Sequence record: NC_047754.1
Direction: 5' to 3' (one strand)
DNA from: Escherichia phage phiAPCEc03
Length of the DNA: 64,000 nucleotides
The notes under the pieces: generated by a model
What the model was told of the DNA's origin: nothing
What the model saw: only the letters and a program-made list of their open reading frames with translations
Databases searched by the model: none
Shown here: positions 1-61,366 of the stretch, piece by piece
How positions within the stretch are numbered: the first letter of the stretch is position 1
Layout of the letters: the number at the start of each line of letters is the position of its first letter
Program-made: the position numbers and the translations under genes

Positions 1-461
1 CTGGCTTTTCTAAGTTCTTTTTCAGCCTGCTCAAGAGTTTTAAAAGTTCCTATGGTAATTCTATTACCATTTACACGTAGTTTTGCTTCGAACTTTCCCT
101 CCCCGCGTTTATATACTCCCTTAACCCCTGTAGACTCATTCTTCCATCCCGAAGAGTTTTTTCCATTCTCTGCATTTGTTGCTTTACGTAAGTTATTCCA
201 CCTATTGTTGAAGGGGTCTTGATCTTTGTGATCAATGAGAAATTCACCTGGGTCTTCTCCTGTCATGTATAGATACGCTACCCGATGGGCCTTATATAAC
301 CCATTATTACCCATTGATAGGGATATTCCTGAACTATTTCTACTACCTGCTGGTTTACCTTTACGACTCCCTGAATTCCAAGTAAATATACCTGCCTCTG
401 GATCATAGTCATATTTTTTCTTATATTCTTCTAATGATAGAAGAGGTTTATGATTTGCCAT
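1..461 (-). CDS. HNH-AP2 homing endonuclease, partial (start codon at 461, C-terminus runs off window edge)
   Basis: Hand translation of minus strand from ATG at 461 gives MANHKPLLSLEEYKKKYDYDPEAGIFTWNSG...YKAHRVAYLYMTGEDPGEFLIDHKDQDPFNNRWNNLRKATNAENGKN...GVKGVYKRGEGKFEAKLRVNGNRITIGTFKTLEQAEKELRKA with no stop to position 1; HNH motif plus AP2-like C-terminal domain; paralogous to ORFs at 40340, 47672, 60851. Absent from ORF track because it is truncated. Confidence 0.6.
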   Translation of the reverse strand, partial: MANHKPLLSLEEYKKKYDYDPEAGIFTWNSGSRKGKPAGSRNSSGISLSMGNNGLYKAHRVAYLYMTGEDPGEFLIDHKDQDPFNNRWNNLRKATNAENGKNSSGWKNESTGVKGVYKRGEGKFEAKLRVNGNRITIGTFKTLEQAEKELRKA

Positions 462-666
462 TTATCTTGAATCTCCTCCGAGAACTTCTTGAGCCATCAT
501 TCCACTCCCGCTCAAACTCCGCACGTTTCTCTTCAAACTTCCGCTCCCTTTCCGCAATCTCCCGCGATACTTCCGCAATATATTTACGATGGCTGTCGAT
601 AGCCGCAGTCATTCCGAAAATTCCCGCAAGTATCCCGATAATAAAAGCAATTATAATACTAAACAT
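448..666 (-). CDS. small membrane protein (N-terminal transmembrane helix, charged C-terminus)
   Basis: 72 aa ORF; hydrophobic N-terminus FSIIIAFIIGILAGIFGMTAAI followed by K/E/R-rich tail; function unknown. Confidence 0.4.
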   Translation of the reverse strand: MFSIIIAFIIGILAGIFGMTAAIDSHRKYIAEVSREIAERERKFEEKRAEFEREWNDGSRSSRRRFKINGKS

Positions 667-853
667 CTAATTCCCTCTCAATTTGCAGAATACGGGTACT
701 ATCACAACGTTGCAGTTCTACTAATTTTTCTATAGCAAATTGTTGCTGCTTTACCTGGGCCTCTAGAGTTTTTAGGCGAACATACGCGTTATAAGAAACA
801 ATGAAAGTTGCCCAGACTAGTATTACTATTAGTGTAGCTACTACTTCCATCAT
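659..853 (-). CDS. small membrane protein (TM helix plus coiled-coil-like tail)
   Basis: 64 aa ORF; MMEVVATLIVILVWATFIVSY hydrophobic segment; start overlaps stop of upstream small ORF (ATGA-type coupling). Confidence 0.4.
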   Translation of the reverse strand: MMEVVATLIVILVWATFIVSYNAYVRLKTLEAQVKQQQFAIEKLVELQRCDSTRILQIERELDV

Positions 854-957
854 TTACGTTTCTCCAGTAATAAAATTTCAACTCTAGCCAAGTGATTATC
901 TAAAATACATTGTCCGATAATAACAACCCCTAGTAATGCAATAATTACCCATTCCAT
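850..957 (-). CDS. very small membrane protein (35 aa)
   Basis: Hand translation MEWVIIALLGVVIIGQCILDNHLARVEILLLEKRK; overlapping stop/start with neighbours; below ORF-track size cutoff. Confidence 0.3.
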   Translation of the reverse strand: MEWVIIALLGVVIIGQCILDNHLARVEILLLEKRK

Positions 958-1085
958 TAAATCCACCCCGCCATAGCTGCTAACCAAAAACCTACGAAAA
1001 TAAAGAATAGGATAGTTCCGAACCCAAAACTATTTATCCAACTCTCATACACCTCTCCGCGTCTATTCTTTCTTTTGTTTGACAT
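957..1085 (-). CDS. very small membrane protein (42 aa)
   Basis: Hand translation MSNKRKNRRGEVYESWINSFGFGTILFFIFVGFWLAAMAGWI; basic N-terminus then hydrophobic helix; TAATG overlap with next ORF. Confidence 0.3.
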   Translation of the reverse strand: MSNKRKNRRGEVYESWINSFGFGTILFFIFVGFWLAAMAGWI

Positions 1086-1261
1086 ATCTTTCGTGCTCCC
1101 ATAAATGTGATATTTAAAATATTTTATAGTTTGTGTATAACCGACCGTGCTTGTGAACTCCTAGAAGGACTCCTATTTTTCTTACCTAGTGGTTTCTGCC
1201 AATATACCATCCAAGAAATAAAAAATTTAGTTTACTTGGATGTCTTTTTGTTTTATACTAA

Positions 1262-1528
1262 TTACAGGTAATTAGATTGCTCTAGTTTAAATTTACAATC
1301 ACCATATTTAAGGTCAAACTGACTGAGATCCCACCACCCAAATTTAGTACGGAGCTGTACTACTGGAAAGCGATCTCCCTTAATACGAACTTTTTGAACC
1401 TTGAGACCGTAATGTTCTTCTCCCGCACCACCAAAAGATTTTACAAATCCCGTACAAAATGGTTTGGGAGCAGGTGCACAACCAGATAACATAACTACGG
1501 CAACTAGTGCAATTACAAACTTTTTCAT
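1262..1528 (-). CDS. llp: Llp-like lipoprotein (receptor-blocking superinfection-exclusion lipoprotein)
   Basis: 88 aa; signal peptide MKKFVIALVAVVMLSGC with lipobox LSG-C; divergent from the receptor-binding protein gene as in T5 llp/oad; own sigma70-like promoter. Confidence 0.75.
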   Translation of the reverse strand: MKKFVIALVAVVMLSGCAPAPKPFCTGFVKSFGGAGEEHYGLKVQKVRIKGDRFPVVQLRTKFGWWDLSQFDLKYGDCKFKLEQSNYL

Positions 1529-5180: not shown

Positions 5181-5294
5181 ATAAATATAGGAAGGGATAC
5201 TACTCAGTTGGTATCCCATTCCTGCATTTTAAAATCCCCTTTACAAATTCGATACGATTATGTATACTATATTCATACAGTTGAGGAGAACACT

Positions 5295-5732
5295 ATGGCA
5301 AGCAATATAAAATATAAACGCGATGCTATATCCCTTATGAGAGACGGAATAAAAAGTCAATATAAAAAAGACTCTCAATGTGCTATCTGCGGTTGTGCTG
5401 AAGAATTAGAGCTTCATCATTACCATACGGTGTCTCTACTAGTTAAAAAATTTGCTAAAGAACTCCAATTGGATTTCACTGACGAAGAAACAGTCCTTTC
5501 AAATAGGACGGCATTCTATGATCGATATAGGCATGAGCTAGTAGAAGACACTGTTACCCTTTGTGTACACCATCACCAATTATTACATAAGGTTTACACA
5601 AAAGAACCTCCTTTATTTTCTGCTAATAAGCAAAAAGTGTGGGTTCAAAAGCAGAAAGACAAATTACAGAATCCTCAAGAAAAGACACAAGTCAAGACTG
5701 AAACAAAATCAGGATTCGCAAGGTTCTTATAA
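5295..5732 (+). CDS. HNH endonuclease (Cys/His-box type)
   Basis: CAICGCAEELELHHYH ... CVHHHQLLH metal-binding pattern; ATG at 5295 preceded by GAGGAG SD (ORF track's upstream start at 5208 is unlikely); sits between terminase and portal. Confidence 0.6.
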   Translation: MASNIKYKRDAISLMRDGIKSQYKKDSQCAICGCAEELELHHYHTVSLLVKKFAKELQLDFTDEETVLSNRTAFYDRYRHELVEDTVTLCVHHHQLLHKVYTKEPPLFSANKQKVWVQKQKDKLQNPQEKTQVKTETKSGFARFL

Positions 5733-12711: not shown

Positions 12712-13611
12712 ATGTACTACTCTCTAATGAGAGAGTCAAAAGTTATAGTTGAGTATGATGGTAGGGCATTTCATTTTGATGCCCTATCAAACTATGATAT
12801 ACAGACTTCCTACGAGGAATTCAAGACTCTTCGTAGGACTGTTCATCGTAGAACTAACTATGCAGACTCTATTATAAATGCTCAAACTCCCTCTTCTATC
12901 TCTCTAGCAGTAAATTTCAGCAATACTCTTACTGAGGCTAACTTCTTTGAATGGTTAGGTTTTGATAGAAAAGGTAATACTTTCTTACTCCCACTATATA
13001 GTAATAATATTGAACCTATTATGTTCAATATCTATATAGTAAACAAAGATAATAACTGTGTATATTTTGAAAACTGCTATGTATCTACAGTAGATTTTTC
13101 TTTAGATAAGAATATACCAATTCTTAATGTTGGTATTGAGTCTGGGAAATTCTCAGAAGTATCTACCTATAGAGAAGCCGCTTCTATTATACAGGGTGAA
13201 GTAATGTCTTACAGCCCAGTAATAGCTTCTACTAATGGCAGCATCTTACCCGGTCTTATTTCTGCCTCTTTATCTTTCCAACAGCAGTGCTCCTGGAGAG
13301 AGGATAAGAGTGTTTTTGATATAAATAAAATTTATAATAATAAAAGAGCCTATGTAACTGAAATGAATGCTTCGGCAACCCTTTCTCTGTATTACTTAAA
13401 ACGTTTTGCAGGAGATATGGTTTATAATATAGAACCGGAGATAGATGTACCTTTAACGATAAGAAATAATAATATTTCTATAGATTTTCCTTCAGCACGT
13501 ATTACAAAACGCCTAGATTTCTCAGATGTGTATAGAGTTGAGTGGGATATTATACCTACTGCCTCCTCAGACCCAGTGAGAATAGATTTCTTTGGAGAAA
13601 TTAAAAAATGA
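12712..13611 (+). CDS. tail collar/minor tail protein (T5 p140-like)
   Basis: 299 aa; position between tail tube and chaperone genes. Confidence 0.45.
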   Translation: MYYSLMRESKVIVEYDGRAFHFDALSNYDIQTSYEEFKTLRRTVHRRTNYADSIINAQTPSSISLAVNFSNTLTEANFFEWLGFDRKGNTFLLPLYSNNIEPIMFNIYIVNKDNNCVYFENCYVSTVDFSLDKNIPILNVGIESGKFSEVSTYREAASIIQGEVMSYSPVIASTNGSILPGLISASLSFQQQCSWREDKSVFDINKIYNNKRAYVTEMNASATLSLYYLKRFAGDMVYNIEPEIDVPLTIRNNNISIDFPSARITKRLDFSDVYRVEWDIIPTASSDPVRIDFFGEIKK

Positions 13612-39451: not shown

Positions 39452-39481
39452 ATTATACCAAATCTTTAAGCGATTCAGCAA
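39452..39481 (-). promoter_or_regulatory. sigma70 promoter for DNA polymerase gene (-35 TTGCTG, 18 nt, -10 TATAAT)
   Basis: -10 overlaps primase stop codon; conserved downstream ATATATTGG... Confidence 0.5.
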
Positions 39482-40343
39482 CTAAAATTTCAATACGTTT
39501 TGCTAACATATCAATCTCTTCTTTATTTAAGTCACCAGGGTCTTTACCTTCAGGCAGAAGAAAGTTAGCAACTACAGGTGTTAAACGCGTTTTTGTACGA
39601 ATTAGCTTGGCCAATGCTTGTGCAGCTTTATTACCAGAAGCATCATTATCTAGTAAGATAACAACAACTTTTACACCGGCAATAATATAAGGACTGAACT
39701 TATCTGCAATGTTATCTGAAGTAAACTGATGTGTACCAAAGCAGCAGGAAGCATAGTCTATACCATTATCCTCTAGATTCAGCATATCAAAGATACCTTC
39801 AACTAGAATAAGAACTGGAGTATTATATCGTACAGGAAAAATTGGTGGTGAAACTTGTTTTGGTTTTACTAAGTATTTAGGAGGGGCAGAACTGTTTATA
39901 GAACGACCCAAAAATAGGATATTGCGTCCAACAGCATCTGTGATTGGGAATACAATTCTGCCTTCCCAGTCTGCTTGGTGTTGGAAAGCAAAATATTTCT
40001 TCAAGGTCTTAGAACTTATGCCTCGGAAATCACCTTCGAAAAGGTAAGCAGATTCAGGAATTGCAAGATTCGTTGATCCATTCCTAATCTCTGAAATCTT
40101 TTTACGTACTTGCGATAGCCTTGGGGACTGTCGGTACTGAGTCTCATTAAAATAATGGTAAATGCTCGGTATACCTTTACCGAATCCACAACTCAAGCAG
40201 TGCATAATACCTGTTTCAGGGTCAATACGCAAACTTGGGTGTTTATCGTCATGATCTGGATTGAGACAACATATAAGAATATCCCCGCCTGTATCCTTGT
40301 ACTCAATTCCTTTTAGATCAAGTAACTCTGTTATTCTACTCAT
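39453..40343 (-). CDS. DNA primase (DnaG-like: zinc finger plus TOPRIM)
   Basis: 296 aa; CHC2-type zinc finger CCLNPDHDDKHPSLRIDPETGIMHCLSCG; TOPRIM-like LVEGIFD...ILLDNDASG. Confidence 0.8.
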   Translation of the reverse strand: MSRITELLDLKGIEYKDTGGDILICCLNPDHDDKHPSLRIDPETGIMHCLSCGFGKGIPSIYHYFNETQYRQSPRLSQVRKKISEIRNGSTNLAIPESAYLFEGDFRGISSKTLKKYFAFQHQADWEGRIVFPITDAVGRNILFLGRSINSSAPPKYLVKPKQVSPPIFPVRYNTPVLILVEGIFDMLNLEDNGIDYASCCFGTHQFTSDNIADKFSPYIIAGVKVVVILLDNDASGNKAAQALAKLIRTKTRLTPVVANFLLPEGKDPGDLNKEEIDMLAKRIEILVAESLKDLV

Positions 40344-40873
40344 GAATTTAACTCCTCCAGTGAAGGATAATTAGATGTATCAAAAATTTCTATAACAGCA
40401 CGTTCTCCATGTAACTTAGTCCTTAATATATTTGCTGAATTTACAGCTAGCTCTAGCTCTTCATACTTAAATCTGCCACCATTTTTAAGAGTGCTATTAG
40501 AGTCTCTTACTTGAACTCTCCATCTTTGTTTTTCTATATCCCAAGCAACTCCCAAATATCCAGACTTACTACATGCGGTTTTATTTCTACTATTTTCCTG
40601 GGCTGTGGCGTCTCTTAGATTACACCATCGGTTATCAAAGGGTATTCTATTTACATGGTCTACTTTTTCAGGTAACGTGTTTTCCATAAATAGGAAGGCC
40701 ATACGATGGGCTTTATAATCACTACCATCTATACCGATAATTATATAACCGTTTGAATCCTTTCTAGTTACTATACTCCCGGCTTTCTGGTTGCCTCTAG
40801 ATACTTTTCTAATAAACTCCCCAGTCTCTGGGGAGTAGTCAAACAGTTCTTTTAGTCGTTCCTGTGTTATCAT
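40340..40873 (-). CDS. HNH-AP2 homing endonuclease
   Basis: 177 aa; HNH core VDHVNRIPFDNRWCNLRDATAQEN, AP2-like YLGVAWDIEKQRWRVQV; N-terminus MITQERLKELFDYSPETGEF nearly identical in pattern to the 60851 ORF. Confidence 0.75.
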   Translation of the reverse strand: MITQERLKELFDYSPETGEFIRKVSRGNQKAGSIVTRKDSNGYIIIGIDGSDYKAHRMAFLFMENTLPEKVDHVNRIPFDNRWCNLRDATAQENSRNKTACSKSGYLGVAWDIEKQRWRVQVRDSNSTLKNGGRFKYEELELAVNSANILRTKLHGERAVIEIFDTSNYPSLEELNS

Positions 40874-42393
40874 ATATCGCTGGCCTGTTCACCTGTTGAA
40901 TTTTCAGCTTTGTCTTTCTTAGCACGTTTAGATTGAGCTGGCTTATCCTTCTCAATAGGGATAACGAACTCAGCTTCCATTTGAGATATATCTTCCATTG
41001 CTAGGTTGGTAGTGTTATCCATCCGCAGGGTTTCCCAGTTCATTTTAGGCATAAACTTCACGCTATCAGAAGAACGAGTCTTAACGAAGTCAAACATAAT
41101 AGCACCTTGACCATTATCAGCTTTTGCAGCATTAAGATTAGCAGCCATGTCTGCGGAATCAAGAATCCCCTTTGACATACGTGTTCTACCATCTTGATCA
41201 ATCTGGTAAGGAGCTACACCAGCCACGTTATGTTTCTGGCAGATAGATTTGAAAGACGAGCTAACAACCATCTGTTCTTTCCAGTCATACATATCAATGG
41301 TTTTAGAGTCTGGAAGTCGGGTTTGGTTAATATAGTCCAGTAAAGCTACTGTAACTTTATCCCCATATCTAGCAACTAATTTATTTAATTCTACGTCAAC
41401 TGTTGTAATAGACAGCTCAGGATCATAAACAATAATCATAGGAGTATGTAGCTCATATCCTTCTATTAGCTTACTTTCCATATCGTAGAAATCACTCATC
41501 TTAGCCATTGTGTACTGTTTAACGAAATTGTCGAAAAGCTCTTCACCACCGTTAAACATCCTAGCTCTAGTTCTGGCTAATCTCAACAGAGCTGCACCTT
41601 CTAGAGTATTATTACGCATTGCTAGTGCTGATACACCAGCTAGCATAGCTAGATTACGTCTAAATACTTCATGTTCTTTCATCTCAATTGAGAAGTATGG
41701 AGCAATATCTCCATTCAAATATTGCTGAACCTGTATGTTTGAACAGATAATGGATTTACCAGTACCACGCCAACCACCAAGCAGTAACGTTTCTGTGCGA
41801 GCTAAACCAATTTGAGCGTCGAACTCATTACAAATACCAAGAGCGATTAAGTTCAGTTTGGTATCTTCTTCTCTCTGGAAAATACGCATGTTATCTGCGT
41901 TGAATACTTTTCCAGTATTCGTTACTTTCTCTTCTAATTTTAAGTGAAGGGAGGCAACTCGGTTAAGAATTTCTCCCTGATCCAGCATTGTTAAATCTTG
42001 AAGCACGTCTGTTTCTAGAAGCTTCAGGAATAAATCCTGTGTATACTCGGCCTCTAGGACTTCAAGTGCCTGTTCCATGCTAACTTCTGGAATTTGAGTG
42101 TTAGCTAAGACGACTAGAGCTTGAGAAAGGCGGGCGTTCCTATTAGCTTCAAGCATAAGTGCGTCAATGGACGGCATTGTGTTATATTTTTTATAATAAT
42201 TCTGGACGGCTTGGTAAATTGAGGAGAAAGCGTCATTAAAATGATCTTTATGCAGTTTTGAGAATGTTTCCAATGCTATTTGCTTCTGTTCGGAAGCTAG
42301 AAGCATCTTCAACACTACAGCTTGCACGTTAAACAAGGTCATTCTCCTTTGCACGCTTTCGTGCCTTCTAAATGCAAAAAGGGGAAGGAGCAT
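40870..42393 (-). CDS. DnaB-like replicative DNA helicase
   Basis: 507 aa; RecA-like C-terminal domain with Walker A GGWRGTGKS; adjacent to primase. Confidence 0.65.
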   Translation of the reverse strand: MLLPLFAFRRHESVQRRMTLFNVQAVVLKMLLASEQKQIALETFSKLHKDHFNDAFSSIYQAVQNYYKKYNTMPSIDALMLEANRNARLSQALVVLANTQIPEVSMEQALEVLEAEYTQDLFLKLLETDVLQDLTMLDQGEILNRVASLHLKLEEKVTNTGKVFNADNMRIFQREEDTKLNLIALGICNEFDAQIGLARTETLLLGGWRGTGKSIICSNIQVQQYLNGDIAPYFSIEMKEHEVFRRNLAMLAGVSALAMRNNTLEGAALLRLARTRARMFNGGEELFDNFVKQYTMAKMSDFYDMESKLIEGYELHTPMIIVYDPELSITTVDVELNKLVARYGDKVTVALLDYINQTRLPDSKTIDMYDWKEQMVVSSSFKSICQKHNVAGVAPYQIDQDGRTRMSKGILDSADMAANLNAAKADNGQGAIMFDFVKTRSSDSVKFMPKMNWETLRMDNTTNLAMEDISQMEAEFVIPIEKDKPAQSKRAKKDKAENSTGEQASDI

Positions 42394-47446: not shown

Positions 47447-47454
47447 ATAAATTT

Positions 47455-47796
47455 TTACGATTCCTTGAGCAAAGAAGAAAGTTCAGCATATACTTTATCT
47501 AACTCAAACCCTATGCGAAGAGATACGTTAGTCCTCCGTTGTTTAAGTAACCACTCGGATATGTTAGGGATGCCAGCTAATCTATGTGGTACCACCCTAC
47601 ATAGCTTTTCCGAAGTATCATAAACAGGAACTTTACGTTCTTTTACTGGAAACTTCCTTGTTTCCCATTTTTTATTCTTCACTGTCATATCTCTCCGAGG
47701 GATTAAATTCACCAAACAGCTCTTTAACTCCCCTAAGGTATAGCTGATGGGCTTCTTCCGGGGTATCTCGTCTACCAAAAATATGTTGCTTTCCAT
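47455..47796 (-). CDS. hypothetical protein (true start possibly internal Met near 47690)
   Basis: 113 aa ORF overlapping 3' end of upstream HNH gene by 125 nt; basic. Confidence 0.3.
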   Translation of the reverse strand: MESNIFLVDEIPRKKPISYTLGELKSCLVNLIPRRDMTVKNKKWETRKFPVKERKVPVYDTSEKLCRVVPHRLAGIPNISEWLLKQRRTNVSLRIGFELDKVYAELSSLLKES

Positions 47797-48202
47797 CGCA
47801 GTAAGCGTAGGCCATATACCTATTACCTCGTTTTACAACTCCAGTGAATCCGGTAGAATTAGTAGAACACTTCTTATTCTTTCCATTTTCGGAATAGGTA
47901 GCCTTACGTAAATTATCCCACAAGTTGTTTAAACTATCACCGTCTTTATGGTCAATAGTTTTATCTCCAGGATCTTCACCTGTCTTTATAAACCAGATTA
48001 TTCTATGGGCTAAGTAAGCTGTCCGCTCCCCATTTATCATAAACTCTAGCTGTCTCCCAGTTTTCATTTTGGAGCCCGCTACTTTTCCCTTCCTTGGGCC
48101 AGATAACCAAATTAAGTCCCCAGTACTTTCGTCATATCTAAGCTTTTCTAGGATAAATGCCATAGGAGGCATTGGTTTATGCATCTTCATTAGTTGCTCC
48201 AA
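47672..48202 (-). CDS. HNH-AP2 homing endonuclease
   Basis: 176 aa; HNH core IDHKDGDSLNNLWDNLRKATYSENGKN, AP2-like TGFTGVVKRGNRYMAYAYCDGKQHIFGRRDTPEEAHQLY. Confidence 0.75.
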   Translation of the reverse strand: MEQLMKMHKPMPPMAFILEKLRYDESTGDLIWLSGPRKGKVAGSKMKTGRQLEFMINGERTAYLAHRIIWFIKTGEDPGDKTIDHKDGDSLNNLWDNLRKATYSENGKNKKCSTNSTGFTGVVKRGNRYMAYAYCDGKQHIFGRRDTPEEAHQLYLRGVKELFGEFNPSERYDSEE

Positions 48203-50963
48203 GTTCGGACAGTACTTCTTCTGCCATAGCCTTCTCTTCCTCTGTCATGAATTTGAAAGGAATTGGCATACACTCGATTTTACAATAGGTTCTGTACCAG
48301 TCTACGATATTTTCAGTGTTCATATCCTTACCAATACCCATCATACCAAGATACATTCTAGCATATTTTGGGTTAGCACTCTGACCTGTTTTAAGGAAGA
48401 AATCTTTCTTCTTACCTTTCAGAGCTTCTATGAATGGTTTGATAGTAACATTTGAACACTTCTTAATATCTTCCCAGAACATCTCGTGCATCTTATGGAA
48501 GAATGCAGCTCGATCATTAGGTTTATCTTTGATATATTGTTCAACATGCTCAACTGTTACATCTTTAATAGACTCAAGATGATAGTAGCGAACAAGAAGT
48601 AGTTTAGCTTCGTACGCATCTGCATGGCGTGGAGCACAATAATCAGGAGTTGAATATAAAATAGCTTTGATTCGCTCTTCCGTATACTCTTTTCCTGCAC
48701 CTTCGATAGTTCCCCAGCTTTCACTGAAAATATCAATAGTTGCACCCTGATCAAGCAAGTAATAACGTAAAGTACTAGTATAGTTCCTAGACTCCAGCTC
48801 CCTACGACGTGCGTATAATTGCTGTGCTAACTCCAGCCAACCTTCATCAATGTTATATTGTTCAGAACCTGCGGAGAATCCACTCGTAGATTTATCAATG
48901 AAATAATAAATGTTCTGAGCGCCACGGTCGCGCCTGATTGCTTGGAAACGCATGTTTGGCGCTTGGTTACTAGTTCTAGTAATAACGAATACGTTATCAA
49001 AGTAGTTAAAGTCAACTCCACTCGTTACGGATGGACTACATAATAAGCAATCAATTTGTTGATCAATTAGCTCATTAGTTGTGTAATCCAGAATACGTCT
49101 AATATCCACATCAGACGTAGAGTTTGAGTGGATTTCCTTAACTAACGCACCCGTATTACGACGCAACGCCATGCCCTTCTCATTCAGTTCATCTGGTCCA
49201 CAGTCAGATACTAGGATAGATTTCTCACCCATCTCTAGAGATGTCTGAAGTGCAACCCAAATACTGGATTCATCAGGAAACTCATAAGCATGAGCTTTTG
49301 ACAGCATTCTACGGTGATGATTATAAAATGCAACCGGTTTATCAAACTCAATCAAGGAACCATATGCTTCAATTGTTTCTGCACTAATATCACCATCAGA
49401 TAATATAATGATTTTTGCAGTTGCAAGAATGTCCCGAAGAACCTGAATACATTCACGACGTTGTTTAACAACCGGGGCGAATAATAGGTCATTCATTACA
49501 GCGTCACATTCATCGATAAAGATTGCATCAATTTGACCAATAAAACTCTTGAACTTATGCAAAGAGTGAATAGTTGTGGACATACGGTCAATAGCACCAC
49601 GCTTAAAATTGAGCATATCTACAGACTTATCATATTGTCCTGCACTAAATTTCTTGGCATTTGAAGATACCAGTGCTCTAGTATTGGTAATTGCTAAGAA
49701 ATTACCTTTAATAACTCCTGAGTCTAACCAACGCACAACCGCCGTGGTTTTACCTGTACCTAGACTTGCTTTTACAAAAGTCATATAACCTTCTGGTGGC
49801 ACAGTATTTAATTTCAAGAAGTTATCAGTTTCTAGAGAATTAGTTTCTAGCTTTTTAAGTGGAATACCTTTTAAAACATCTGGTATATCACGTTTAGAAT
49901 TATTAACAAACGCTTTCAGAGCCTGCTTACGACCGTTGTTAAAATAATCTTGAATATTACGACTATTATCTTTAGTTGCAATATACTCAGATAAAGCTGG
50001 GCGGATCTCCTTCTCTAGCCAACCAAAATCTACACCATCCTCTAGTGCTCGGTGATAGAGTTTAGGAATAATACGTAGATATACACCATCCTCAGCTTCT
50101 TCTAACTCGCTGATGGTTTCTTCTACTTTATCAGAGGCAGCCTTTTTACCTTTAATTTGATCGAGTAAGGAGTAGAACTCCTCTTTAAACTCTCCTCTAG
50201 TTGTTTCATAGTCAACTAGATTATTGGGTAAATTTACTTTTGAGCCTTTAACAAATACCAGACGTGAAGCACCCTCCGCTTTAAACGGATCTACTATACC
50301 ATCAGTAAATAAAGGATCTGCAAAGTAATGGAGCTGTACGGAAGAGTAATAAGCTAAGTCGGCAATATCAAAGCCATACTTTTGTCTACTACTTTCGTTG
50401 ATAGATGTAAATAAGAACTTGATTTGACCCTGAGTTACTTTAACATTAGATTCTAGTATTAAGTGCATTCGGATACCTGGTTTTAGCCCAGCCGAAGACG
50501 ATGCATGAGCAATAAACCCTGCATCAAGAGGAAACATGTCCTCACTAATACTATTTAACATTCTAATAATATGTCGAGCCATGCCAACAAGATCAAACTT
50601 GTTACAACCACCTGTATCTACAATACCATCCACGTCCATTGCAATTATATGACTTGGGTTAGATACATTAAAGTTGCCCTTCTTACGTCGCACATTATTT
50701 TTAGGTGCAAGACATCGACCTCGTACCGCAACGATATGAGGGTCAGACGTTAAACGTCTCATAAGAGGAAGCATTTCTACTAGGGTTTGAGGATCAACTT
50801 CATCAATTACATCAAACTTGAAGGGCATTGAAGCTGGTTTACCTTCAGGATGCTTTGAGGAAAATCTTTTAGCAAAAAGATAGTCTTCTGCTTTAACTTC
50901 TCGCCAATTGCCTGTGGCTAAATCGCGATGAAATCCTGCATGACCTTGTAGGATTGAGAACAC
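48177..50963 (-). CDS. large P-loop ATPase / helicase-like protein (possible replication-origin-binding protein)
   Basis: Walker A SLGTGKTTAV and Walker B IFIDECDAV; ORF track start (51041) is a TTG; GTG at 50963 with AGGAG SD 7 nt upstream is preferred; first ATG is further downstream. Confidence 0.6.
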   Translation of the reverse strand: MFSILQGHAGFHRDLATGNWREVKAEDYLFAKRFSSKHPEGKPASMPFKFDVIDEVDPQTLVEMLPLMRRLTSDPHIVAVRGRCLAPKNNVRRKKGNFNVSNPSHIIAMDVDGIVDTGGCNKFDLVGMARHIIRMLNSISEDMFPLDAGFIAHASSSAGLKPGIRMHLILESNVKVTQGQIKFLFTSINESSRQKYGFDIADLAYYSSVQLHYFADPLFTDGIVDPFKAEGASRLVFVKGSKVNLPNNLVDYETTRGEFKEEFYSLLDQIKGKKAASDKVEETISELEEAEDGVYLRIIPKLYHRALEDGVDFGWLEKEIRPALSEYIATKDNSRNIQDYFNNGRKQALKAFVNNSKRDIPDVLKGIPLKKLETNSLETDNFLKLNTVPPEGYMTFVKASLGTGKTTAVVRWLDSGVIKGNFLAITNTRALVSSNAKKFSAGQYDKSVDMLNFKRGAIDRMSTTIHSLHKFKSFIGQIDAIFIDECDAVMNDLLFAPVVKQRRECIQVLRDILATAKIIILSDGDISAETIEAYGSLIEFDKPVAFYNHHRRMLSKAHAYEFPDESSIWVALQTSLEMGEKSILVSDCGPDELNEKGMALRRNTGALVKEIHSNSTSDVDIRRILDYTTNELIDQQIDCLLCSPSVTSGVDFNYFDNVFVITRTSNQAPNMRFQAIRRDRGAQNIYYFIDKSTSGFSAGSEQYNIDEGWLELAQQLYARRRELESRNYTSTLRYYLLDQGATIDIFSESWGTIEGAGKEYTEERIKAILYSTPDYCAPRHADAYEAKLLLVRYYHLESIKDVTVEHVEQYIKDKPNDRAAFFHKMHEMFWEDIKKCSNVTIKPFIEALKGKKKDFFLKTGQSANPKYARMYLGMMGIGKDMNTENIVDWYRTYCKIECMPIPFKFMTEEEKAMAEEVLSELGATNEDA

Positions 50964-51462
50964 AACAATACTCCTGTGTTGGAAATGAAATAAGTTTTCT
51001 TTAGGACTATTCAGAAAGAATAGAACAACTGTTACTGTCAATTTCTCAACAAATTAATTGCAAATACTGAAGTGGGGTGGCAACTTCCACTTTCACGCTG
51101 CGCTGCTGCTTTGCTATACCGCACAAATCCTTGAGGATGGCCGCTAAGCCAGATTTGCTCACCTAATGCTTCATATACTAGCTCATACTAGATGCAATAT
51201 AACTTACAGAATCACGTCTCGGAGTTTTTCACTCCTCCCGTCTCACTTCACAACCACCTCTGTCTAGGTTGCTTCGAGGCCTTACCAGGGTTCCTACGGG
51301 ACGCAGATCGCTAAGTATTCTATTAACTATTTGTTTAAAAACTAACACGTAACAGTTAAAACAACCCTTAATGGGGCAGCCTAACTGTTCCGTATCGCGG
51401 ATTGTAAACAAGAAAAATTAGCAAAATCAATTTTTACTAATGTCTCTCAATTCAATATAAAT

Positions 51463-51491
51463 ATTATATCAAGATTTTGGGCATCCTGCAA
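51463..51491 (-). promoter_or_regulatory. sigma70 promoter (-35 TTGCAG, 17 nt, -10 TATAAT) firing into a ~500 nt leader
   Basis: Minus strand TTGCAG-gatgcccaaaatcttga-TATAAT-ATTTATATTGAATTGAG. Confidence 0.5.
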
Positions 51492-51582
51492 GTAAAATTT
51501 TCCGGATGGTGCTATCATTGGTCTTGAGTACGGATAAAACCGAGCCAAAATGACTCGGTAATCAGAGTTCAGCTAATAAAAA

Positions 51583-51975
51583 TCATTCATCATTTAGGCC
51601 TGGAACATAAATCCCAACACGATTTAATTGTTCTTTAGCTTCTGCGAGAATATCTGGAGTGTACTCCCAAATATCATCTTCCACCTGTAAAAGATGGGGC
51701 GAACAACCATCATCCGGCACACGACATATGGCCAAACCACGTGGATGGAATATAGAGAAGTTTAGGGCAACAATTAAACCCATAGCGGATAATTCATTCC
51801 AGTCCAATTCCCATTCCCCCGCGTAGCCGGATAGGAAAACACCAACACAGGGATCATCTATTTGCTGCTCCGGAAAAGTGAAGGAGGCTTGTCTTACCCC
51901 CAACCAACGTTGTAGCAGCTTCTCCGCACGTTTCACCAAACTAGGATCAATCTGACGCCAATATACTTGTTCCAT
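51583..51975 (-). CDS. hypothetical protein, tandem paralog B
   Basis: 130 aa; aligns with neighbour at 51985 (PCVGVFL..W.EL..MGLIVALNF..F.P......YVPGL versus PCIGLIV..WKELDEMGLVFALNYKLFMP....YMIPGL). Confidence 0.5.
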   Translation of the reverse strand: MEQVYWRQIDPSLVKRAEKLLQRWLGVRQASFTFPEQQIDDPCVGVFLSGYAGEWELDWNELSAMGLIVALNFSIFHPRGLAICRVPDDGCSPHLLQVEDDIWEYTPDILAEAKEQLNRVGIYVPGLNDE

Positions 51976-51984
51976 TATGCCCTC

Positions 51985-52413
51985 TTAAGCAGTTAAACCT
52001 GGGATCATATACCCGAAACGTCGAAGTTTCTGAATCCCCTCATCTACTTCTTCCGGTGAGTAAGACCAACCATAACGTTCATTAACCTGAAAACCAGGAG
52101 ATTCACTAGTTTTATAGTTAACAACGAGGCGATGCTTAGCAGGCATAAACAGCTTATAGTTTAACGCAAAAACTAAGCCCATTTCATCTAACTCTTTCCA
52201 GCCGACAATCTCTTCAAGACCCTCCTCTACCTGAACAATTAAACCAATACAGGGGGCCTCATCAATATCATCTTTAAAAGCAAAGGAGATTTCGTTATTC
52301 TCACACCATATTTTCAAAGAGTTAATAGCCTCATTATACAGGCTAGCTGGGAGAGTACGCCAAAAGTTAACCAAAATTGGGTTAGCTTCTTTAGAGAATA
52401 CATTATTGAACAT
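51985..52413 (-). CDS. hypothetical protein, tandem paralog A
   Basis: 142 aa; see paralog B. Confidence 0.5.
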   Translation of the reverse strand: MFNNVFSKEANPILVNFWRTLPASLYNEAINSLKIWCENNEISFAFKDDIDEAPCIGLIVQVEEGLEEIVGWKELDEMGLVFALNYKLFMPAKHRLVVNYKTSESPGFQVNERYGWSYSPEEVDEGIQKLRRFGYMIPGLTA

Positions 52414-52415
52414 AT

Positions 52416-52955
52416 TTACACCTTAAATTGTTGCAAGGATTTACACATTTCAAGATCTGGGCTAAATTCTAGCATATAGCTAACAGCTTTTAAATCTTGA
52501 AGATTTATCCCAGTCCTACCGTTGACTATAACCGTTGGATACTGATACATCATAGCACCCGCATCATCAAGCACACACCAATGTTTGAGCTTATGCTTTT
52601 CAACGAAGCGAAGAACAGAATTACCCCTAGATAATCCACCACCAGTAAAATCCGTTGTACCAAGAAAACGATCGATAAGACCTAATCCGGTCATAATCTG
52701 AACGTTCTCCATCTCATTTCTGACAGAAAACCAAGATGATACTCCGACAATCATTATCGGAGAAGGACGAATAAAGTCCTGAAAAGCCTTGAGAAGCGGT
52801 TTGAAAACCCAGTCACTTCCAAAGAAAATCTTTTCATCATCAGGTGCATGATGGTGGGAGATGCTCGAATTGAGCACCCCATCAATGTCTAGAAAAATAA
52901 TTGGAGTATTACTTATTTCCACCAGTAGCATCCCACGTCCAGACTTTAACTTCAT
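52416..52955 (-). CDS. HAD-superfamily phosphatase-like protein
   Basis: 179 aa; motif I FLDIDGVL near N-terminus; downstream VLDDAG-type acidic motif. Confidence 0.6.
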   Translation of the reverse strand: MKLKSGRGMLLVEISNTPIIFLDIDGVLNSSISHHHAPDDEKIFFGSDWVFKPLLKAFQDFIRPSPIMIVGVSSWFSVRNEMENVQIMTGLGLIDRFLGTTDFTGGGLSRGNSVLRFVEKHKLKHWCVLDDAGAMMYQYPTVIVNGRTGINLQDLKAVSYMLEFSPDLEMCKSLQQFKV

Positions 52956-53261: not shown

Positions 53262-53437
53262 ATCTGTTTCCCCTCATCTCCAGAGGATAACCATATGTTC
53301 TCTGTAGTATAGATAATTTTATATGTGTTGCCCAACCTTTCTTTAACATTAGGAAATCTATAGGCAAACCTATAACACCACGTGCCAGACTCAGTTATAA
53401 AAATATCCCATTCATTATTTCTTGCTTCCCGACACAT
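53252..53437 (-). CDS. small hypothetical protein
   Basis: 61 aa; EWDIFITESGTWCYRF motif shared with 53091..53261. Confidence 0.35.
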   Translation of the reverse strand: MCREARNNEWDIFITESGTWCYRFAYRFPNVKERLGNTYKIIYTTENIWLSSGDEGKQICP

Positions 53438-54233
53438 AAGGTCTACCCTCTAAATGAGCTTCTACACGAGCAATAAAATCAGGATCACTGAAAGCATCTA
53501 CCGCACCTTTACTCCAGTAAGGGATACCGCGTTCTTCCAGCTGGTACATCTCACTACGAGTCATACCTTGATAGCCCGGTTCCGCCGCTAGGGCACTATC
53601 ATAGTAGTTAACAACCATTAGCTTGGCAGCAGTCAAATTAAGAACAGGAAATAATTCCCAGTAGAAGTTAATTACTTGGTTAGAGCAACCAATCACAACG
53701 ATCATATCTTGACTGGTAATACCATCAAAAACATTGTACATTTCTGCGTATGCAGGAGCATGCTCTCCAAAGAAGATTACATTAGGTTTAACCCATTTAT
53801 AATCATCTGGATCAATAGAATTATATCCTACATCAATAATCCGTTTATTACTACTACTGTAGCTATCCGCTACAACAACCTCTTTTAAGTATCCATGAAT
53901 GTGCAGAATGTCACTATGTGGAACTCCAGCACGCTCAATAAGGTCATCAACGTTGGTAGTCAAGTTTACTATTTGACCGGGATATTGTTTATACCATTCG
54001 CCAATACGCAAATGCGCAAGATTGGGTTCAACAGTTTTTAGCTCTTCACGACGCTTGTTGTAAAACATATGGGTTTTATGATAAAAATTACCACGAAAGG
54101 CATGAATATTACATACTTCTTCTAGATCATAATCATCCCACAGTGCTTTACCACTAGCAGTATCAGTACGGAAGGCTCGTACACCACTTTCAACACTCAA
54201 ACCTGCACCGCTAATAATAATTAATCTACGCAT
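53415..54233 (-). CDS. Sir2-family (sirtuin-like) NAD-dependent protein, zinc-ribbon-less
   Basis: 272 aa; sirtuin signature motifs GAGLSVESGVRAFR (cf. GAGISxxSGIPxFR), TTNVDDL (cf. TQNID), HIHG catalytic His, NVIFFGE, VIGCS; no CxxC...CxxC zinc module between HG and FFGE. Confidence 0.7.
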   Translation of the reverse strand: MRRLIIISGAGLSVESGVRAFRTDTASGKALWDDYDLEEVCNIHAFRGNFYHKTHMFYNKRREELKTVEPNLAHLRIGEWYKQYPGQIVNLTTNVDDLIERAGVPHSDILHIHGYLKEVVVADSYSSSNKRIIDVGYNSIDPDDYKWVKPNVIFFGEHAPAYAEMYNVFDGITSQDMIVVIGCSNQVINFYWELFPVLNLTAAKLMVVNYYDSALAAEPGYQGMTRSEMYQLEERGIPYWSKGAVDAFSDPDFIARVEAHLEGRPYVSGSKK

Positions 54234-58304: not shown

Positions 58305-58336
58305 GGCCTGGGTATGAAAATACTCGGGCCTTTTCT
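58305..58336 (+). terminator. intrinsic terminator
   Basis: Hairpin GGCCTGGGTAT-gaaa-ATACTCGGGCC (with G-U pairs) followed by TTTTCT. Confidence 0.5.
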
Positions 58337-58351
58337 ATCAGAAAATTTTAT

Positions 58352-58380
58352 TTGCCTAATGACCAATAATAATGTAGAAT
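58352..58380 (+). promoter_or_regulatory. sigma70 promoter for nrdA (-35 TTGCCT, 17 nt, -10 TAGAAT)
   Basis: TTGCCT-aatgaccaataataatg-TAGAAT. Confidence 0.5.
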
Positions 58381-58418
58381 ATTCCTTAAATCCTGATAAC
58401 TATAAAAAGGAAAGCCAA

Positions 58419-60749
58419 ATGAGCCATCGCATTGAAAAAGTAATTAAACGTGACGGTACTGTAGAAGACTTTGCTCCTGAAAAACTCAATGGTTGGGCAG
58501 AGTATGGTTGCAAAACAGTTGATGTAAGTTGGTCAGCCATTACTATGGCTGCTCAAAAAACTCTGCCTAAAGGGGTTGTAGATTCCGACACTCTGATGGA
58601 TGCATTAATTAAAGCTGCTGAAAGTCTTATTAAAGATAATCCAGCATACGATGTGCCAGCAAAGGAATTACGTCTTGCGCAAATGCGTAAGCGCCTTTAT
58701 GACTCTTTCGAACCACCTTCTCTACGCTTCTTCCATGATCATATGGTTAGTGTAGGTGCATGGGAAGACATGAGTGCATGGATTACCGATGAGCAGTTTG
58801 AGGCTTTGAATCAGGTTATTGACCATGATCGTGACCGTCTTTTCACTAGTGGAGGACTGAAACAATTCTTTGATAAGTATTCTCGCCGTAATATAGCAAC
58901 TGGAGAAATTTACGAAACTCCGCAATTCGCCTATATGGGTATGGCAATGGCGATGTTATCTCAACCTAACTGGACAATTCTAGATGCAATCGACCTCTAC
59001 AATGCAATGTCGCTCCACAAAATCAACGTTCCTACGCCGCCATTGGTTGGCTTGCGCTCTAGTGATCGTGGATTTGCTAGTTGTTGCCTCGTTGATTCCA
59101 CTGACACATTGGATTCAATCGACACGGCCGAACACATCGTCTTCAAAATGGTTGCAGCCAGAGCGGGAATCGGGTATCATCTTGAAAGCCGATCAATTGC
59201 TGATCCGGTGCGAAATGGGGCATTCCCGCATTCCGGAAAACTGCCATATTATCGACACATTGACCGCTCAGTAAAGGCCAATACTCAGCAAACTCGTGGT
59301 GGTTCTGCTACAGTGTCTTATCCATACTTTGATCCTGAGATCATTCAATTGATGCAGGTTAAGCAACAACGTGCTACAGATGAGAATAAAATCGATAAGA
59401 TGGATTATTCTCTGAGCTTCAACAATCTTTTACTAAAACGTTATCTGAAAAATGAAGATATTACGCTAATGTCATACTTCTATGCTCCAGAAGTTCATGA
59501 AGCGTTTTATAGTGATGACGAGGCTAAATTTGAAGAAATCTATGTGGCAGCGGAGAAACGTGTGGCATCTCTTACAAAGATCGACCACGAAGGAAAAACA
59601 GTTCCAGCAGCTCCTAAAGTCTCTGCAAAAGAAATCCTAGATACTTGGCTACGTATCCGCATGGAAACAGGACGTATGTATGCACACCACATTGCAGAAT
59701 CTAATCGTCATGGTAACTTCCTTGACCAGATTCGTATGACTAACCTTTGTGTTGAAATTACTCAACCTACACGTCCATTCCATCACATTACAGAACTGTA
59801 TAAGACAAAAGAGCAGCTTGATCAAATGAAGCCGGAGGATATTGGTGAAGTATCTCTGTGTAACTTAGGGGGTGTTGTACTTGGACGCATGGAATCTCTG
59901 GCTGAGTGGGAAAAAACTTGCTACATCCTTCTGAAATTCGTTGATACAATTATCGAAATTCAGGATTATCCGTTCCCAACTATGGAATATACGGCTAAGA
60001 AACGTCGTAATGTTGGTATTGGCCTAATGAACGCAGCAGGTGCAATGGCCGCAGAAGGTCTGGCTTATGAAGGTATTGAAGCCCGTAACTGGATTCACCG
60101 TGAGGCTGAAAAACTGTCCTACTTCCTGCATAAAGCCTCTGTACGCCTAGCTAAAGAACAGGGTGCATGTGAGTGGTTCGATCGTACTAAACCATCTAAA
60201 GGAATTCTGGTAATCGACACGTACAAGAAAACTGTTGATGAACTGGTATCCGTAGGTCTAGAAATGGATTGGGAGTCTCTACGTGCAGATATTTTGAAAT
60301 ATGGTATGCGTAACTCTGTTCTGACTGCTCAGATGCCGGGAGAAAGTTCTTCTGTTCTGTTAGGTGTTACTAACTCTATCGAACCACCACGTAAGATTGT
60401 ATCTATCAAGGGTAGTGCAGTGAATAAAGTAATTGCAATTGCTCCAGGTGCAACCGATTGGGAAACGTTAATGAGCTATAAACTGGCTTATGATGTAGAT
60501 CGTATCGAGTGGATCAAATGGGTAGCAACTATGCAGAAATTCTTCAGTCAGTCTATCAGTACGAATATGTACTATGACTACACCAAGTTTGAGAATGAAA
60601 TCATTCCTGGCCCAGTAGTAGTTCGTGATTTCATGACTGCTGTTAAGTATGGGTGGAAAACTTGGTATTATGCTAACTTCAACACTGCAAATGGTGGAGG
60701 TGCTGGAGAAGAAGCAGCCGGTTGTGCATCCGGTGGTTGTACTATTTAA
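58419..60749 (+). CDS. nrdA: ribonucleoside-diphosphate reductase large subunit (class Ia NrdA)
   Basis: ATP-cone start MSHRIEKVIKRDGTVEDF at ATG 58419 with SD AAAGGAAAG (ORF track start 58314 is upstream and unlikely); C-terminal tail Cys pair ...GCASGGCTI. Confidence 0.85.
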   Translation: MSHRIEKVIKRDGTVEDFAPEKLNGWAEYGCKTVDVSWSAITMAAQKTLPKGVVDSDTLMDALIKAAESLIKDNPAYDVPAKELRLAQMRKRLYDSFEPPSLRFFHDHMVSVGAWEDMSAWITDEQFEALNQVIDHDRDRLFTSGGLKQFFDKYSRRNIATGEIYETPQFAYMGMAMAMLSQPNWTILDAIDLYNAMSLHKINVPTPPLVGLRSSDRGFASCCLVDSTDTLDSIDTAEHIVFKMVAARAGIGYHLESRSIADPVRNGAFPHSGKLPYYRHIDRSVKANTQQTRGGSATVSYPYFDPEIIQLMQVKQQRATDENKIDKMDYSLSFNNLLLKRYLKNEDITLMSYFYAPEVHEAFYSDDEAKFEEIYVAAEKRVASLTKIDHEGKTVPAAPKVSAKEILDTWLRIRMETGRMYAHHIAESNRHGNFLDQIRMTNLCVEITQPTRPFHHITELYKTKEQLDQMKPEDIGEVSLCNLGGVVLGRMESLAEWEKTCYILLKFVDTIIEIQDYPFPTMEYTAKKRRNVGIGLMNAAGAMAAEGLAYEGIEARNWIHREAEKLSYFLHKASVRLAKEQGACEWFDRTKPSKGILVIDTYKKTVDELVSVGLEMDWESLRADILKYGMRNSVLTAQMPGESSSVLLGVTNSIEPPRKIVSIKGSAVNKVIAIAPGATDWETLMSYKLAYDVDRIEWIKWVATMQKFFSQSISTNMYYDYTKFENEIIPGPVVVRDFMTAVKYGWKTWYYANFNTANGGGAGEEAAGCASGGCTI

Positions 60750-60756
60750 TAAAAAC

Positions 60757-60790
60757 AAGGAGATCTTCGGGTCTCCTTTTTCTTTGAAAT
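60757..60790 (+). terminator. intrinsic terminator after nrdA
   Basis: Hairpin AAGGAGATC-TTCG-GGTCTCCTT followed by TTTCTTT. Confidence 0.65.
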
Positions 60791-60795
60791 TTTAC

Positions 60796-60824
60796 TTGCT
60801 AATCGCTATCAGATTTGCTATAAT
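60796..60824 (+). promoter_or_regulatory. sigma70 promoter (-35 TTGCTA, 17 nt, -10 TATAAT)
   Basis: TTGCTA-atcgctatcagatttgc-TATAAT directly upstream of the inserted HNH gene. Confidence 0.6.
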
Positions 60825-60850
60825 ATCTCCATTAGTTAAGGAGATTAGTT

Positions 60851-61366
60851 TTGATAACACAAGATGAATTAAAAAGGATTCTGGAGTATAATCCAGATGA
60901 AGGAACATTTACTTGGTTAAATAACCAAGAAGTACACAATAAAGTAAGAGGACTACCTGCTGGTTGTTTAAAACCACACTCAGTAGACCCTAACCGAAAA
61001 GACTTAGTGATACAAATCAAGGGTAAGAAGTACCCTGCACAAAATATTGCTTTCCTGTACATGACAGGAAACTTACCTAAAGTTATGGTTGACCATATAG
61101 ATGGAGATTCACTAAACTATAAGTGGACTAACCTAAGAGAAGCAGACTGGCAGTTAAATAGTCAAAATAGAAAAACCAGTAAAAACAATATATTGGGTAC
61201 TAAGAATATTCGGAAGAAAGGGTCTGGATTTCAAGTTAGAAAATCTATTAACGGAAAAGAATACGTGAAAACTCTTCCAACTCTAGAAGAGGCAATAGAG
61301 TATCGAGATTCTTTAATCCTCTCTATAACCAAAGATCCAACACTACTTAGAAACACAGATAAATAG
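60851..61366 (+). CDS. HNH-AP2 homing endonuclease inserted between nrdA and nrdB
   Basis: 171 aa; HNH core VDHIDGDSLNYKWTNLREADWQLNSQN, AP2-like SGFQVRKSINGKEYVKTLPTLEEAIEYRD; N-terminus MITQDELKRILEYNPDEGTF parallels the 40340 ORF. Confidence 0.75.
   Translation: MITQDELKRILEYNPDEGTFTWLNNQEVHNKVRGLPAGCLKPHSVDPNRKDLVIQIKGKKYPAQNIAFLYMTGNLPKVMVDHIDGDSLNYKWTNLREADWQLNSQNRKTSKNNILGTKNIRKKGSGFQVRKSINGKEYVKTLPTLEEAIEYRDSLILSITKDPTLLRNTDK

Follow-up and report, generated by a model that had tools for sequence, protein, structure and literature searches.

Four free-standing genes in phage phiAPCEc03 very probably encode homing endonucleases of the HNH_3 (I-HmuI-like) class with a C-terminal AP2 domain, and it is just as probable that this family has expanded in T5-like phages. 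The window, the whole stretch of 64,000 nucleotides from NC_047754.1 that was analysed, is that of a Tequintavirus ~95% identical to T5. The initial annotation had proposed four paralogous HNH-AP2 ORFs at intergenic positions. All four (h1 to h4, Table 1) are present where it placed them and are mutually paralogous, with 31-44% identity and E values of 1e-8 to 1e-35 in pairwise BLASTP. The core of its reading, free-standing homing endonuclease genes lodged between conserved genes, is also supported: all four are separate ORFs outside introns and inteins, flanked by complete genes (h1 has one flank only within the window). Alteration of the upstream gene by h1 and h3 is confined to its last few codons, which are overlapped and rebuilt.

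Table 1. Endonuclease genes, neighbouring genes and linked features in the window
Feature	Positions	Strand	Remarks
h1, HNH-AP2 endonuclease gene	3..461	-	Pfam HNH_3 E = 1.8e-13; last gene before right terminal repeat
Small T5 ORF151 protein homologue, upstream host gene of h1	448..666	-	Translated and compared with T5 ORF151
DNA primase gene, downstream neighbour of h2	39453..40343	-	T5 pri orthologue
Third-codon-position substitution block, first ~25 codons of primase	40275..40325	-	Tracks h2 presence
h2, HNH-AP2 endonuclease gene	40340..40873	-	T5 hegJ (P-TflX) orthologue; Pfam HNH_3 E = 6e-8, AP2 E = 0.032
DnaB-like replicative helicase gene, upstream neighbour of h2	40870..42393	-	T5 D6 orthologue
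T5.110-like small gene	47455..47688	-	Start overlaps last 17 nt of h3
h3, HNH-AP2 endonuclease gene	47672..48190	-	T5 hegI (P-TflIX) orthologue
Replication-origin-binding/helicase-like gene (T5.108)	48177..51041	-	Last 14 nt overlap h3 start
nrdA, upstream neighbour of h4	58314..60749	+
nrdA terminator	60757..60778	+
Sigma-70-like promoter common to h4 and nrdB	60796..60824	+	A promoter is annotated here in T5 too
h4, HNH-AP2 endonuclease gene	60851..61366	+	T5 hegH (P-TflVIII) orthologue
Recoded nrdB 5' end linked to h4	61369..61500	+	Holds 27 of the 37 diagnostic columns
nrdB, downstream neighbour of h4	61375..62520	+

Membership of the HNH_3 family was found for every gene by Pfam scan (E = 1e-7 to 2e-13; 31.5-50.3 bits against a gathering score of 24.8 bits). 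Furthermore, a profile of the four genes matched I-HmuI (PDB 1u3e; E = 2.9e-4) over vDHkdg..nn..tnLR...qeN, with the D-H...N...N core aligned. Residues D77, H78, N90, N99 and N102 are identical in all four proteins, each of which keeps the D-H...N...NLR...N core alignable with I-HmuI. The HNH motif as first written holds only in part: its H-x-D-x-D element is missing from h2 (DHVNRIPFDN) and its A-T-x-x-E-N tail from h4, which reads READWQLN. The proposed AP2-like domain stood by structure for two of the proteins, as the AlphaFold models of h3 and h4 resemble both I-HmuI and plant AP2/ERF domains. These predicted models confirm a C-terminal AP2/ERF fold, a three-stranded sheet packed on a helix, in h3 and h4. 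No AP2 match rose above the Pfam cut-off, h2 giving the sole score, and some metagenomic homologues carry PF00847 and PF13392 together. A search of 526 six-frame ORFs with the four-gene HMM (hmmsearch) found no fifth family member in the window and nothing below E = 6. Ten small ORFs scanned for other nuclease-type mobile genes, including that at 5208..5732, matched no nuclease family. The ORF at 5208..5732 lies roughly at the position where relatives annotate a T5orf172-like protein.

The orthologues of h2, h3 and h4 in T5 (NC_005859), hegJ, hegI and hegH, occupy identical positions with the same neighbour overlaps, at 93%, 97% and 97% nucleotide identity, respectively. [quoted passage not shown] HNH-AP2 enzymes known from phages, cyanobacteria and protists (Magnani et al. 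2004), with the ICP1 “IPA-HNH” genes (Barth et al. 2023) among them, share the order of an N-terminal HNH and a C-terminal AP2 domain, and they too lie next to essential genes, where genetic exchange has its boundaries. The ICP1 IPA-HNH domains are too divergent for the HNH_3 profile, whereas h1 to h4 are canonical HNH_3 members. The enzymes encoded by h1 to h4 are probably nickases.

Site occupancy was counted among ~440-470 matching phage records per site for h2, h3 and h4, and haplotypes were compared in nine relatives and by database-wide counts. At all three sites most noncarriers have precise empty sites, and the overlaps between host genes are restored where the site is exactly empty. 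The prospect raised against the initial annotation, of relatives holding all four genes at identical positions with no empty sites, therefore falls away; no record carrying all four genes was present among the matches listed. The same or neighbouring sites hold other HNH_3 genes in other relatives. Differences diagnostic of each gene cluster within ~15-135 nt of its insertion. The earlier proposal that the genes mark recombination hotspots is upheld in that they mark recombination boundaries.

Between dnaB and the primase gene, neighbours that had been correctly named from the outset (as had nrdA and nrdB), h2 was found in 59 of 443 matching records, and empty sites are exactly 530 bp shorter. 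All seven h2-diagnostic columns, from 261 polymorphic columns, fall within 40275..40325, so that h2-linked differences are confined to the first ~70 nt of the primase gene. This block is a candidate target or immunity region for h2, and the primase 5' end of the window represents a third haplotype. The h2 allele of the window is itself mosaic: its dS relative to T5 is 0.37, its dN/dS is 0.03, and over its first ~50 nt it matches the divergent T5_ev219 allele exactly.

The h3 gene probably starts at the ATG at 48190, giving 172 amino acids as in T5 hegI; a start at 48202 corresponds to a TTG-extended ORF. It had been described as upstream of a large ATPase gene, but it is transcriptionally downstream of the origin-binding gene and overlaps its last codons. 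The origin-binding protein ends in ..SELGATNEDA* where h3 is present and in ..SELGARNDSEE* in empty-site genomes, and the h3-diagnostic differences, at 48195-48214, fall in these last codons. The displaced end has been retained: what was originally the 3' end of the origin-binding gene now forms the last 17 nt of h3, whose C-terminus (..RYDSEE*) takes over the ..RNDSEE* codons and the T5.110 ATG of empty-site genomes. The gene occurs in 22 of 469 matching records, and empty sites are ~502 bp shorter.

A similar junction is found at h1, where the last 14 nt of the ORF151-like gene overlap the h1 start and its product ends in ..RRRFKINGKS* in h1 carriers versus ..RKRFREFRPKYGVDDHSMR* in T5. The h1 ATG is at 461, and 153 of ~166 codons lie inside the window, with the C-terminal ~13 beyond its edge; the full length follows from the full-length orthologue of phage 8sent1748, a 166-amino-acid “HNH endonuclease” to which h1 is 99% identical. 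The Shivani orthologue is annotated as AP2/ERF and ends 54 nt short of the terminal repeat. The gene has no counterpart in T5 and occurs in only 24 phage records; in other T5-like phages it is annotated as an HNH endonuclease gene. The neighbouring small ORFs, first taken as lysis-like, encode putative membrane proteins homologous to T5 ORF148-151, beside llp and the receptor-binding gene, and are not lysis genes.

The proximity of h1 to the terminal-repeat boundary (54 nt) raises the question of whether the four genes perform T5-specific housekeeping DNA processing, either making the single-strand interruptions or, for h1, processing the terminal repeat. T5 DNA does carry site-specific nicks, and relatives of this enzyme class are nickases. 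However, T5 lacks h1, BF23 (H254) has nicks yet an empty nrdA/nrdB site, each of the four genes is absent from most T5-like phages, and the annotated T5 nick consensus (Pu-GCGC) is unrelated to the insertion sites. Such a role is extremely unlikely and was rejected, given the natural absence of the genes from T5, BF23 and most relatives.

At the nrdA/nrdB site, the h4 start is a TTG 7 nt past AAGGAG, as annotated in T5, and its stop lies 9 nt earlier than that of hegH. Empty-site genomes, ~519 bp shorter, are identical in the promoter region up to the -10 box, and h4 was found in 73 of 439 matching records. Differences linked to h4 span the first ~135 nt of nrdB, where identity to empty-site genomes is 74-77% over the first 100 nt and climbs away from h4. 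Database-wide, the nrdB 5' end is bimodal: 76 records reach ≥90% identity and 361 fall in the 60-90% bands; h4 carriers number 73. The recoded segment (61369..61500) is a candidate h4 target or co-conversion tract. In Epseptimavirus bobsandoy, h4 is 97.5% identical and the adjacent nrdB bin 100%, whereas the surroundings are 81-96%, which indicates a recent cross-genus transfer of h4.

[quoted passage not shown] The parallel drawn with mobE, already noted for T5-like phages in 2012 (PMC3326045), holds for position and for the presumed target, as h4 likewise adjoins a recoded nrdB 5' end, but it does not extend to homology. MobE has 141 amino acids and, in a Pfam scan, matches HNH PF01844 rather than PF13392 and has no AP2 match. 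BLASTP revealed no sequence similarity between h4 and MobE (E = 9.2), and common ancestry was rejected on this basis and on the different Pfam families. The niche common to MobE and h4 is thus, as judged from sequence comparison, one of convergence and not of common descent.

Flank haplotypes linked to a gene would also arise through simple linkage without cleavage. The four genes might accordingly be immobile, inactive relics, their distribution left by old insertions, later losses and ordinary homologous recombination between phages, with no present endonuclease activity. We consider this quite improbable: the ORFs are intact with a conserved D-H...N...N core and are under strong purifying selection, h4 crossed between genera recently enough to retain 97.5% identity, and different HNH_3 genes compete for the same sites.

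We infer that the proteins act as nucleases, which would give carriers an advantage in mixed infection and may, as first proposed, mediate marker exclusion. Each gene is probably expressed within its host operon. ATGA overlaps tie h2 to dnaB upstream and to primase downstream and would couple it to them in translation; h1 and h3 start 14 nt inside the upstream gene, and h4 has its promoter in common with nrdB. In h2 and h3, neither an own promoter nor an internal terminator was found above shuffled expectation. Homing would be triggered by co-infection, with a carrier phage and a relative lacking the gene in one cell. The AP2 domain may then bind an extended asymmetric site that coincides with or directly adjoins the empty insertion point, i.e., the primase 5' end, the origin-binding gene 3' end, the nrdB 5' end or the 3' end of the ORF151-like gene, and the single HNH site would nick or cut the empty-site DNA. 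Recombinational repair from the carrier would bring in the endonuclease gene and, with it, tens to a few hundred bases of flanking DNA. Carrier genomes themselves would escape, since their site is altered by the insertion and by the linked substitutions, most of which are synonymous.

Across the genes, dN/dS is 0.00-0.10 with dS up to 0.37, which shows long-term constraint at the protein level. Such low values are unusual for purely selfish elements, in which decay is expected after fixation, and the proteins could also serve the phage. They may therefore be former homing endonucleases now kept as beneficial to the phage, either excluding co-infecting relatives or nicking to start recombination-dependent replication. 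Seamless integration into essential operons with overlaps preserved fits this possibility, as does the low dN/dS, and PMC13096335 documents a precedent in SegB, a homing endonuclease that benefits its host phage. Nevertheless, we regard it as unlikely. Each gene is missing from most relatives, and therefore none is needed for growth; in addition, constraint would be expected too during continued reinvasion of empty sites. Benefit to the phage also overlaps with homing as the main explanation and does not replace it.

The junctions allow a more tentative suggestion, for which the case is somewhat better but still short of even: that the cassettes carry portable “adaptor” ends for insertion, free of polar effects, into the final codons of essential genes, and that invasion by competing alleles drives synonymous recoding. 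Both h1 and h3 open with ATGnnnnnnCATAA, through which the upstream gene acquires new last codons and a TAA stop, and the cassette 3' ends leave the start of the downstream gene intact. If so, repeated invasion would drive dense synonymous recoding at the 5' ends of primase and nrdB, over their first 25-45 codons, and an arms race of endonucleases with their targets would have left its footprint in T5-like replication genes as much of their silent-site diversity. The proteins would then be kept (dN/dS ~0.03) by deciding whose alleles survive mixed infection.

The genes and their architecture, how they vary among T5-like phages, and the analogy with mobE can already be found in databases and the literature, and current understanding is unchanged; with three of the four genes already annotated in T5, the finding is real but ordinary. 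T5-like phages are, nevertheless, widely used models and candidates for therapy and biocontrol, and these genes mark recombination boundaries around essential replication and nucleotide-metabolism genes. They are useful strain markers and candidate rare-cutting nickases, may predict the winning alleles in mixed infections or phage cocktails, and probably account for much of the local mosaicism seen in T5-like phages.

The four HNH-AP2 endonuclease genes in the window (h1 to h4) are real paralogues, as the initial annotation had proposed: alignment of the proteins gave pairwise identities of 31 to 44% (E = 1e-8 to 1e-35), and all four passed the Pfam HNH_3 gathering score. When all 526 six-frame ORFs in the window were searched with an HMM of these four, no further family member was detected. 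The HNH motif originally quoted is approximately shared, but h2 reads DHVNRIPFDN and h4 reads READWQLN; a D-H...N...NLR...N core is invariant and aligns with the I-HmuI active site (PDB 1u3e, E=2.9e-4). AP2 did not exceed the Pfam cut-off in any of the four proteins, the sole score being that of h2 (E=0.032). PF00847 and PF13392 occur together in three metagenomic homologues of h3, and AlphaFold models of h3 and h4 match I-HmuI as well as plant AP2/ERF domains (comparisons with the TEM1 AP2 domain, AtERF1, and I-HmuI). The predicted HNH-AP2 architecture is confirmed directly for h3 and h4 and by homology for h1 and h2, in the case of h1 because it is 44% identical to h3 over its full length and its orthologue in phage Shivani is annotated AP2/ERF. 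Each protein combines an HNH domain of the I-HmuI class with an AP2 domain. Judged from its 99%-identical counterpart in phage 8sent1748, h1 has ~166 codons, of which 153 lie inside the window; for h3, the ATG at 48190 is the most likely start, as in T5 hegI.

Features of the window and of segments of relatives (L-numbers), with site searches (gene plus 500-bp flanks; same gene, ≥80% coverage)
Feature	Position	Strand	Records matched	Same gene	Typical empty site shorter by	Remark
h1	3..461	minus				ATG at 461; 3' end beyond window edge
h2 (dnaB/pri)	40340..40873	minus	443	59	530 bp	
h3 (obp/T5.110)	47672..48202	minus	469	22	about 502 bp	position as listed
h4 (nrdA/nrdB)	60851..61366	plus	439	73	519 bp	TTG start 7 nt after AAGGAG
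nrdA terminator	60757..60778					common to occupied and empty genomes
Promoter	60796..60824					common to occupied and empty genomes
ligB	43185-43958	minus				NAD-dependent DNA ligase, split
ligA	44158-45129	minus				NAD-dependent DNA ligase, split
Lateral tail fibre region	23840-28726	plus				
T5.105 homologue	52416-52955	minus				
Sir2-like gene	53415-54233					adjoins T5.105 homologue
pol-primase gap	39391-39452					
109-aa pol-primase ORF	12985-13314 in each of L002, L003, L007					
HNH_3 genes of relatives at window-empty sites	L006 6647-7177 and 36220-36774; L003 24849-25301; L002 21719-22081; L012 14735-15193; L014 2573-3175					

Megablast of window positions 39000-52000 against 50,697 phage records matched 544, the best being T5-like phages (Tequintavirus; ~95-97% identity), T5 included. 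The window is inverted relative to the T5 RefSeq record and has the T5 gene order: receptor-binding and terminase genes followed by structural genes (plus strand), the replication block from D15 to nrdD (minus strand), and phoH-nrdA-nrdB-frd-thy (plus strand). The split ligase is a known T5 feature; two promoters are annotated in T5 in the ~200-bp ligB-ligA spacer. Where T5 has a single 1396-aa ltf gene, the lateral tail fibre region of the window contains ORFs of 140 (Pfam LtfC-like), 815, 87, and 580 aa, a layout similar to that of relatives having several fibre genes. The T5.105 homologue, labelled "Sir2" in the T5 RefSeq record, matches Pfam HAD_SAK_2 (E=5e-20), which is the HAD domain found in RNA-repair proteins of the "Swiss Army Knife" type. 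Five records 87-98% identical to the T5-like sequence of the window (OR846838.1, OR849099.1, OR848168.1, MG065692.1, and MG065642.1) are labelled "Listeria phage LM 4-11-1 / 4-14-1" or "Campylobacter phage C13 / A148" and are probably mislabelled or contaminant contigs, not true Listeria or Campylobacter phages.

Three of the genes are orthologues of T5 genes at the same positions: h2 of hegJ (P-TflX; 93% nucleotide identity), h3 of hegI (P-TflIX; 97%), and h4 of hegH (P-TflVIII; 97%). The DT57C record names its h4 orthologue "nicking homing endonuclease F-TflVIII", a name behind which no open-access paper was found. No T5 counterpart exists for h1; there, the right terminal repeat directly follows the ORF151 homologue, and the h1 orthologue of Shivani ends 54 nt before the repeat. 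Two neighbourhoods were corrected: h3 lies downstream, not upstream, of the helicase-like origin-binding gene (obp), and the "lysis-like" small ORFs beside h1 are small putative membrane proteins. The h2 allele has a mosaic structure (window 40260-40359 and 40660-40873): over the initial ~50 nt it is identical to the otherwise very divergent T5_ev219 allele, and the remainder is T5-like, with identity of only 85-87% in the N-terminal third. The adjacent primase 5' haplotype differs from both haplotypes, carrier and non-carrier, of the nine relatives compared, and phage HdH2 is 99% identical over the whole segment.

Comparison of the insertion sites revealed mostly empty sites, rather than all four genes in all relatives. 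The h1 gene was found in 24 records, and the match of most relatives begins only at window position 502. At site 2 (dnaB/pri), what is inserted is a module of exactly ORF size: the dnaB stop and primase start overlap as ATGA in empty genomes, and this overlap is present at each end of h2 in occupied genomes. At site 3 (obp/T5.110), the insertion falls within the final codons of the origin-binding gene, which ends ..SELGARNDSEE* in empty genomes, with the T5.110 ATG within those codons, and ..SELGATNEDA* in occupied genomes, via the first 14 nt of h3 in another frame. The h3 C-terminus (..RYDSEE*) reuses the original 3' end of the origin-binding gene and the T5.110 start. The same 14-nt overlap, ATGGCAAATCATAA, joins h1 and its upstream gene, whose C-terminus is also unlike the T5 allele. 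At site 4 (nrdA/nrdB), occupied and empty sequences part immediately after the -10 box, a 28-nt leader being replaced by 547 nt containing h4 and a new nrdB ribosome-binding site.

The flanks also bear out the claim that the genes lie at boundaries of recombination, a location described generally for phage nucleases (PMC10448857). Diagnostic columns, with no allele common to carriers and non-carriers among the window and nine relatives, occur only in the immediate flanks of the insertions. At site 2, seven of 261 polymorphic columns are diagnostic, all in the first ~70 nt of the primase gene and three apart, as expected for third-codon positions; site 3 has six, none more than about 15 nt from a junction; site 4 has 37, with 27 in the first ~135 nt of nrdB. 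Identity to empty-site genomes is 74-77% over the first 100 nt of nrdB, rising to 85-87%, then about 90%, and finally the same as that to carriers; towards nrdA, the window is closest to non-carriers. Database-wide, identity over the first 136 nt of nrdB has a bimodal distribution (≥90% in 76 records, 60-90% bands in 361), with nothing between 82.2% and 90.4% among the matches listed, and the 76 records agree with the 73 carrying h4. Epseptimavirus bobsandoy has an h4 97.5% identical and an adjacent nrdB bin 100% identical, in surroundings of 81-96%. Homing accompanied by co-conversion would be expected to leave such patterns, as would carrier alleles with altered target sites.

The dN/dS ratios of the window alleles versus orthologues are 0.00-0.10 (dS up to 0.37, for h2); the proteins are strongly constrained and not decaying. 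The genes are embedded in host operons, dispensable, polymorphic, and linked to recoded flanks. By analogy with I-HmuI/I-BasI, which are nickases (PMC3017599), and T4 MobE, the AP2 domain would read a long site at or beside the empty point of insertion, a nick would be made there by the single HNH site, and recombinational repair from a carrier genome would copy in gene and flank. MobE occupies the nrdA-nrdB interval, nicks T2 nrdB in its 5' end, and co-converts flanks (PMC2790892), so the parallel drawn with h4, already made for T5-like phages in 2012 (PMC3326045), is good in position and function; MobE is, however, an analogue and not a homologue. It is a 141-aa PF01844 protein, whereas h4 is HNH_3, and no similarity between the two was detectable; the shared niche is therefore convergent.

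In a minority of records, the site or one adjacent to it holds another gene, and all seven annotated endonuclease genes scanned there are HNH_3; members of an expanded paralogous family thus occupy a series of hot spots in the region. Because relatives carry HNH_3 genes at sites empty in the window (D12/D11, thy/rnh, obp/T5.107, T5.110/D2, and among the small ORFs near llp), the family has at least nine insertion sites in the region covered. In the pol-primase gap, DaisyDussoix, BB1, SP15, and SA001 have a further ~375-bp segment that includes a 109-aa ORF lacking a Pfam match; absent from the window, T5, N5, DT57C, and T5_ev219, this segment is another presence/absence cassette. According to the BF23 genome paper (PMC10644984), local differences among T5-like genomes stem mainly from homing endonuclease genes. 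With small corrections, the sequences support the interpretation of h1 to h4 as paralogous free-standing HNH-AP2 homing endonuclease genes, putative as to nuclease activity and to any part in marker exclusion, and these elements, already annotated and discussed, were correctly recognised here.
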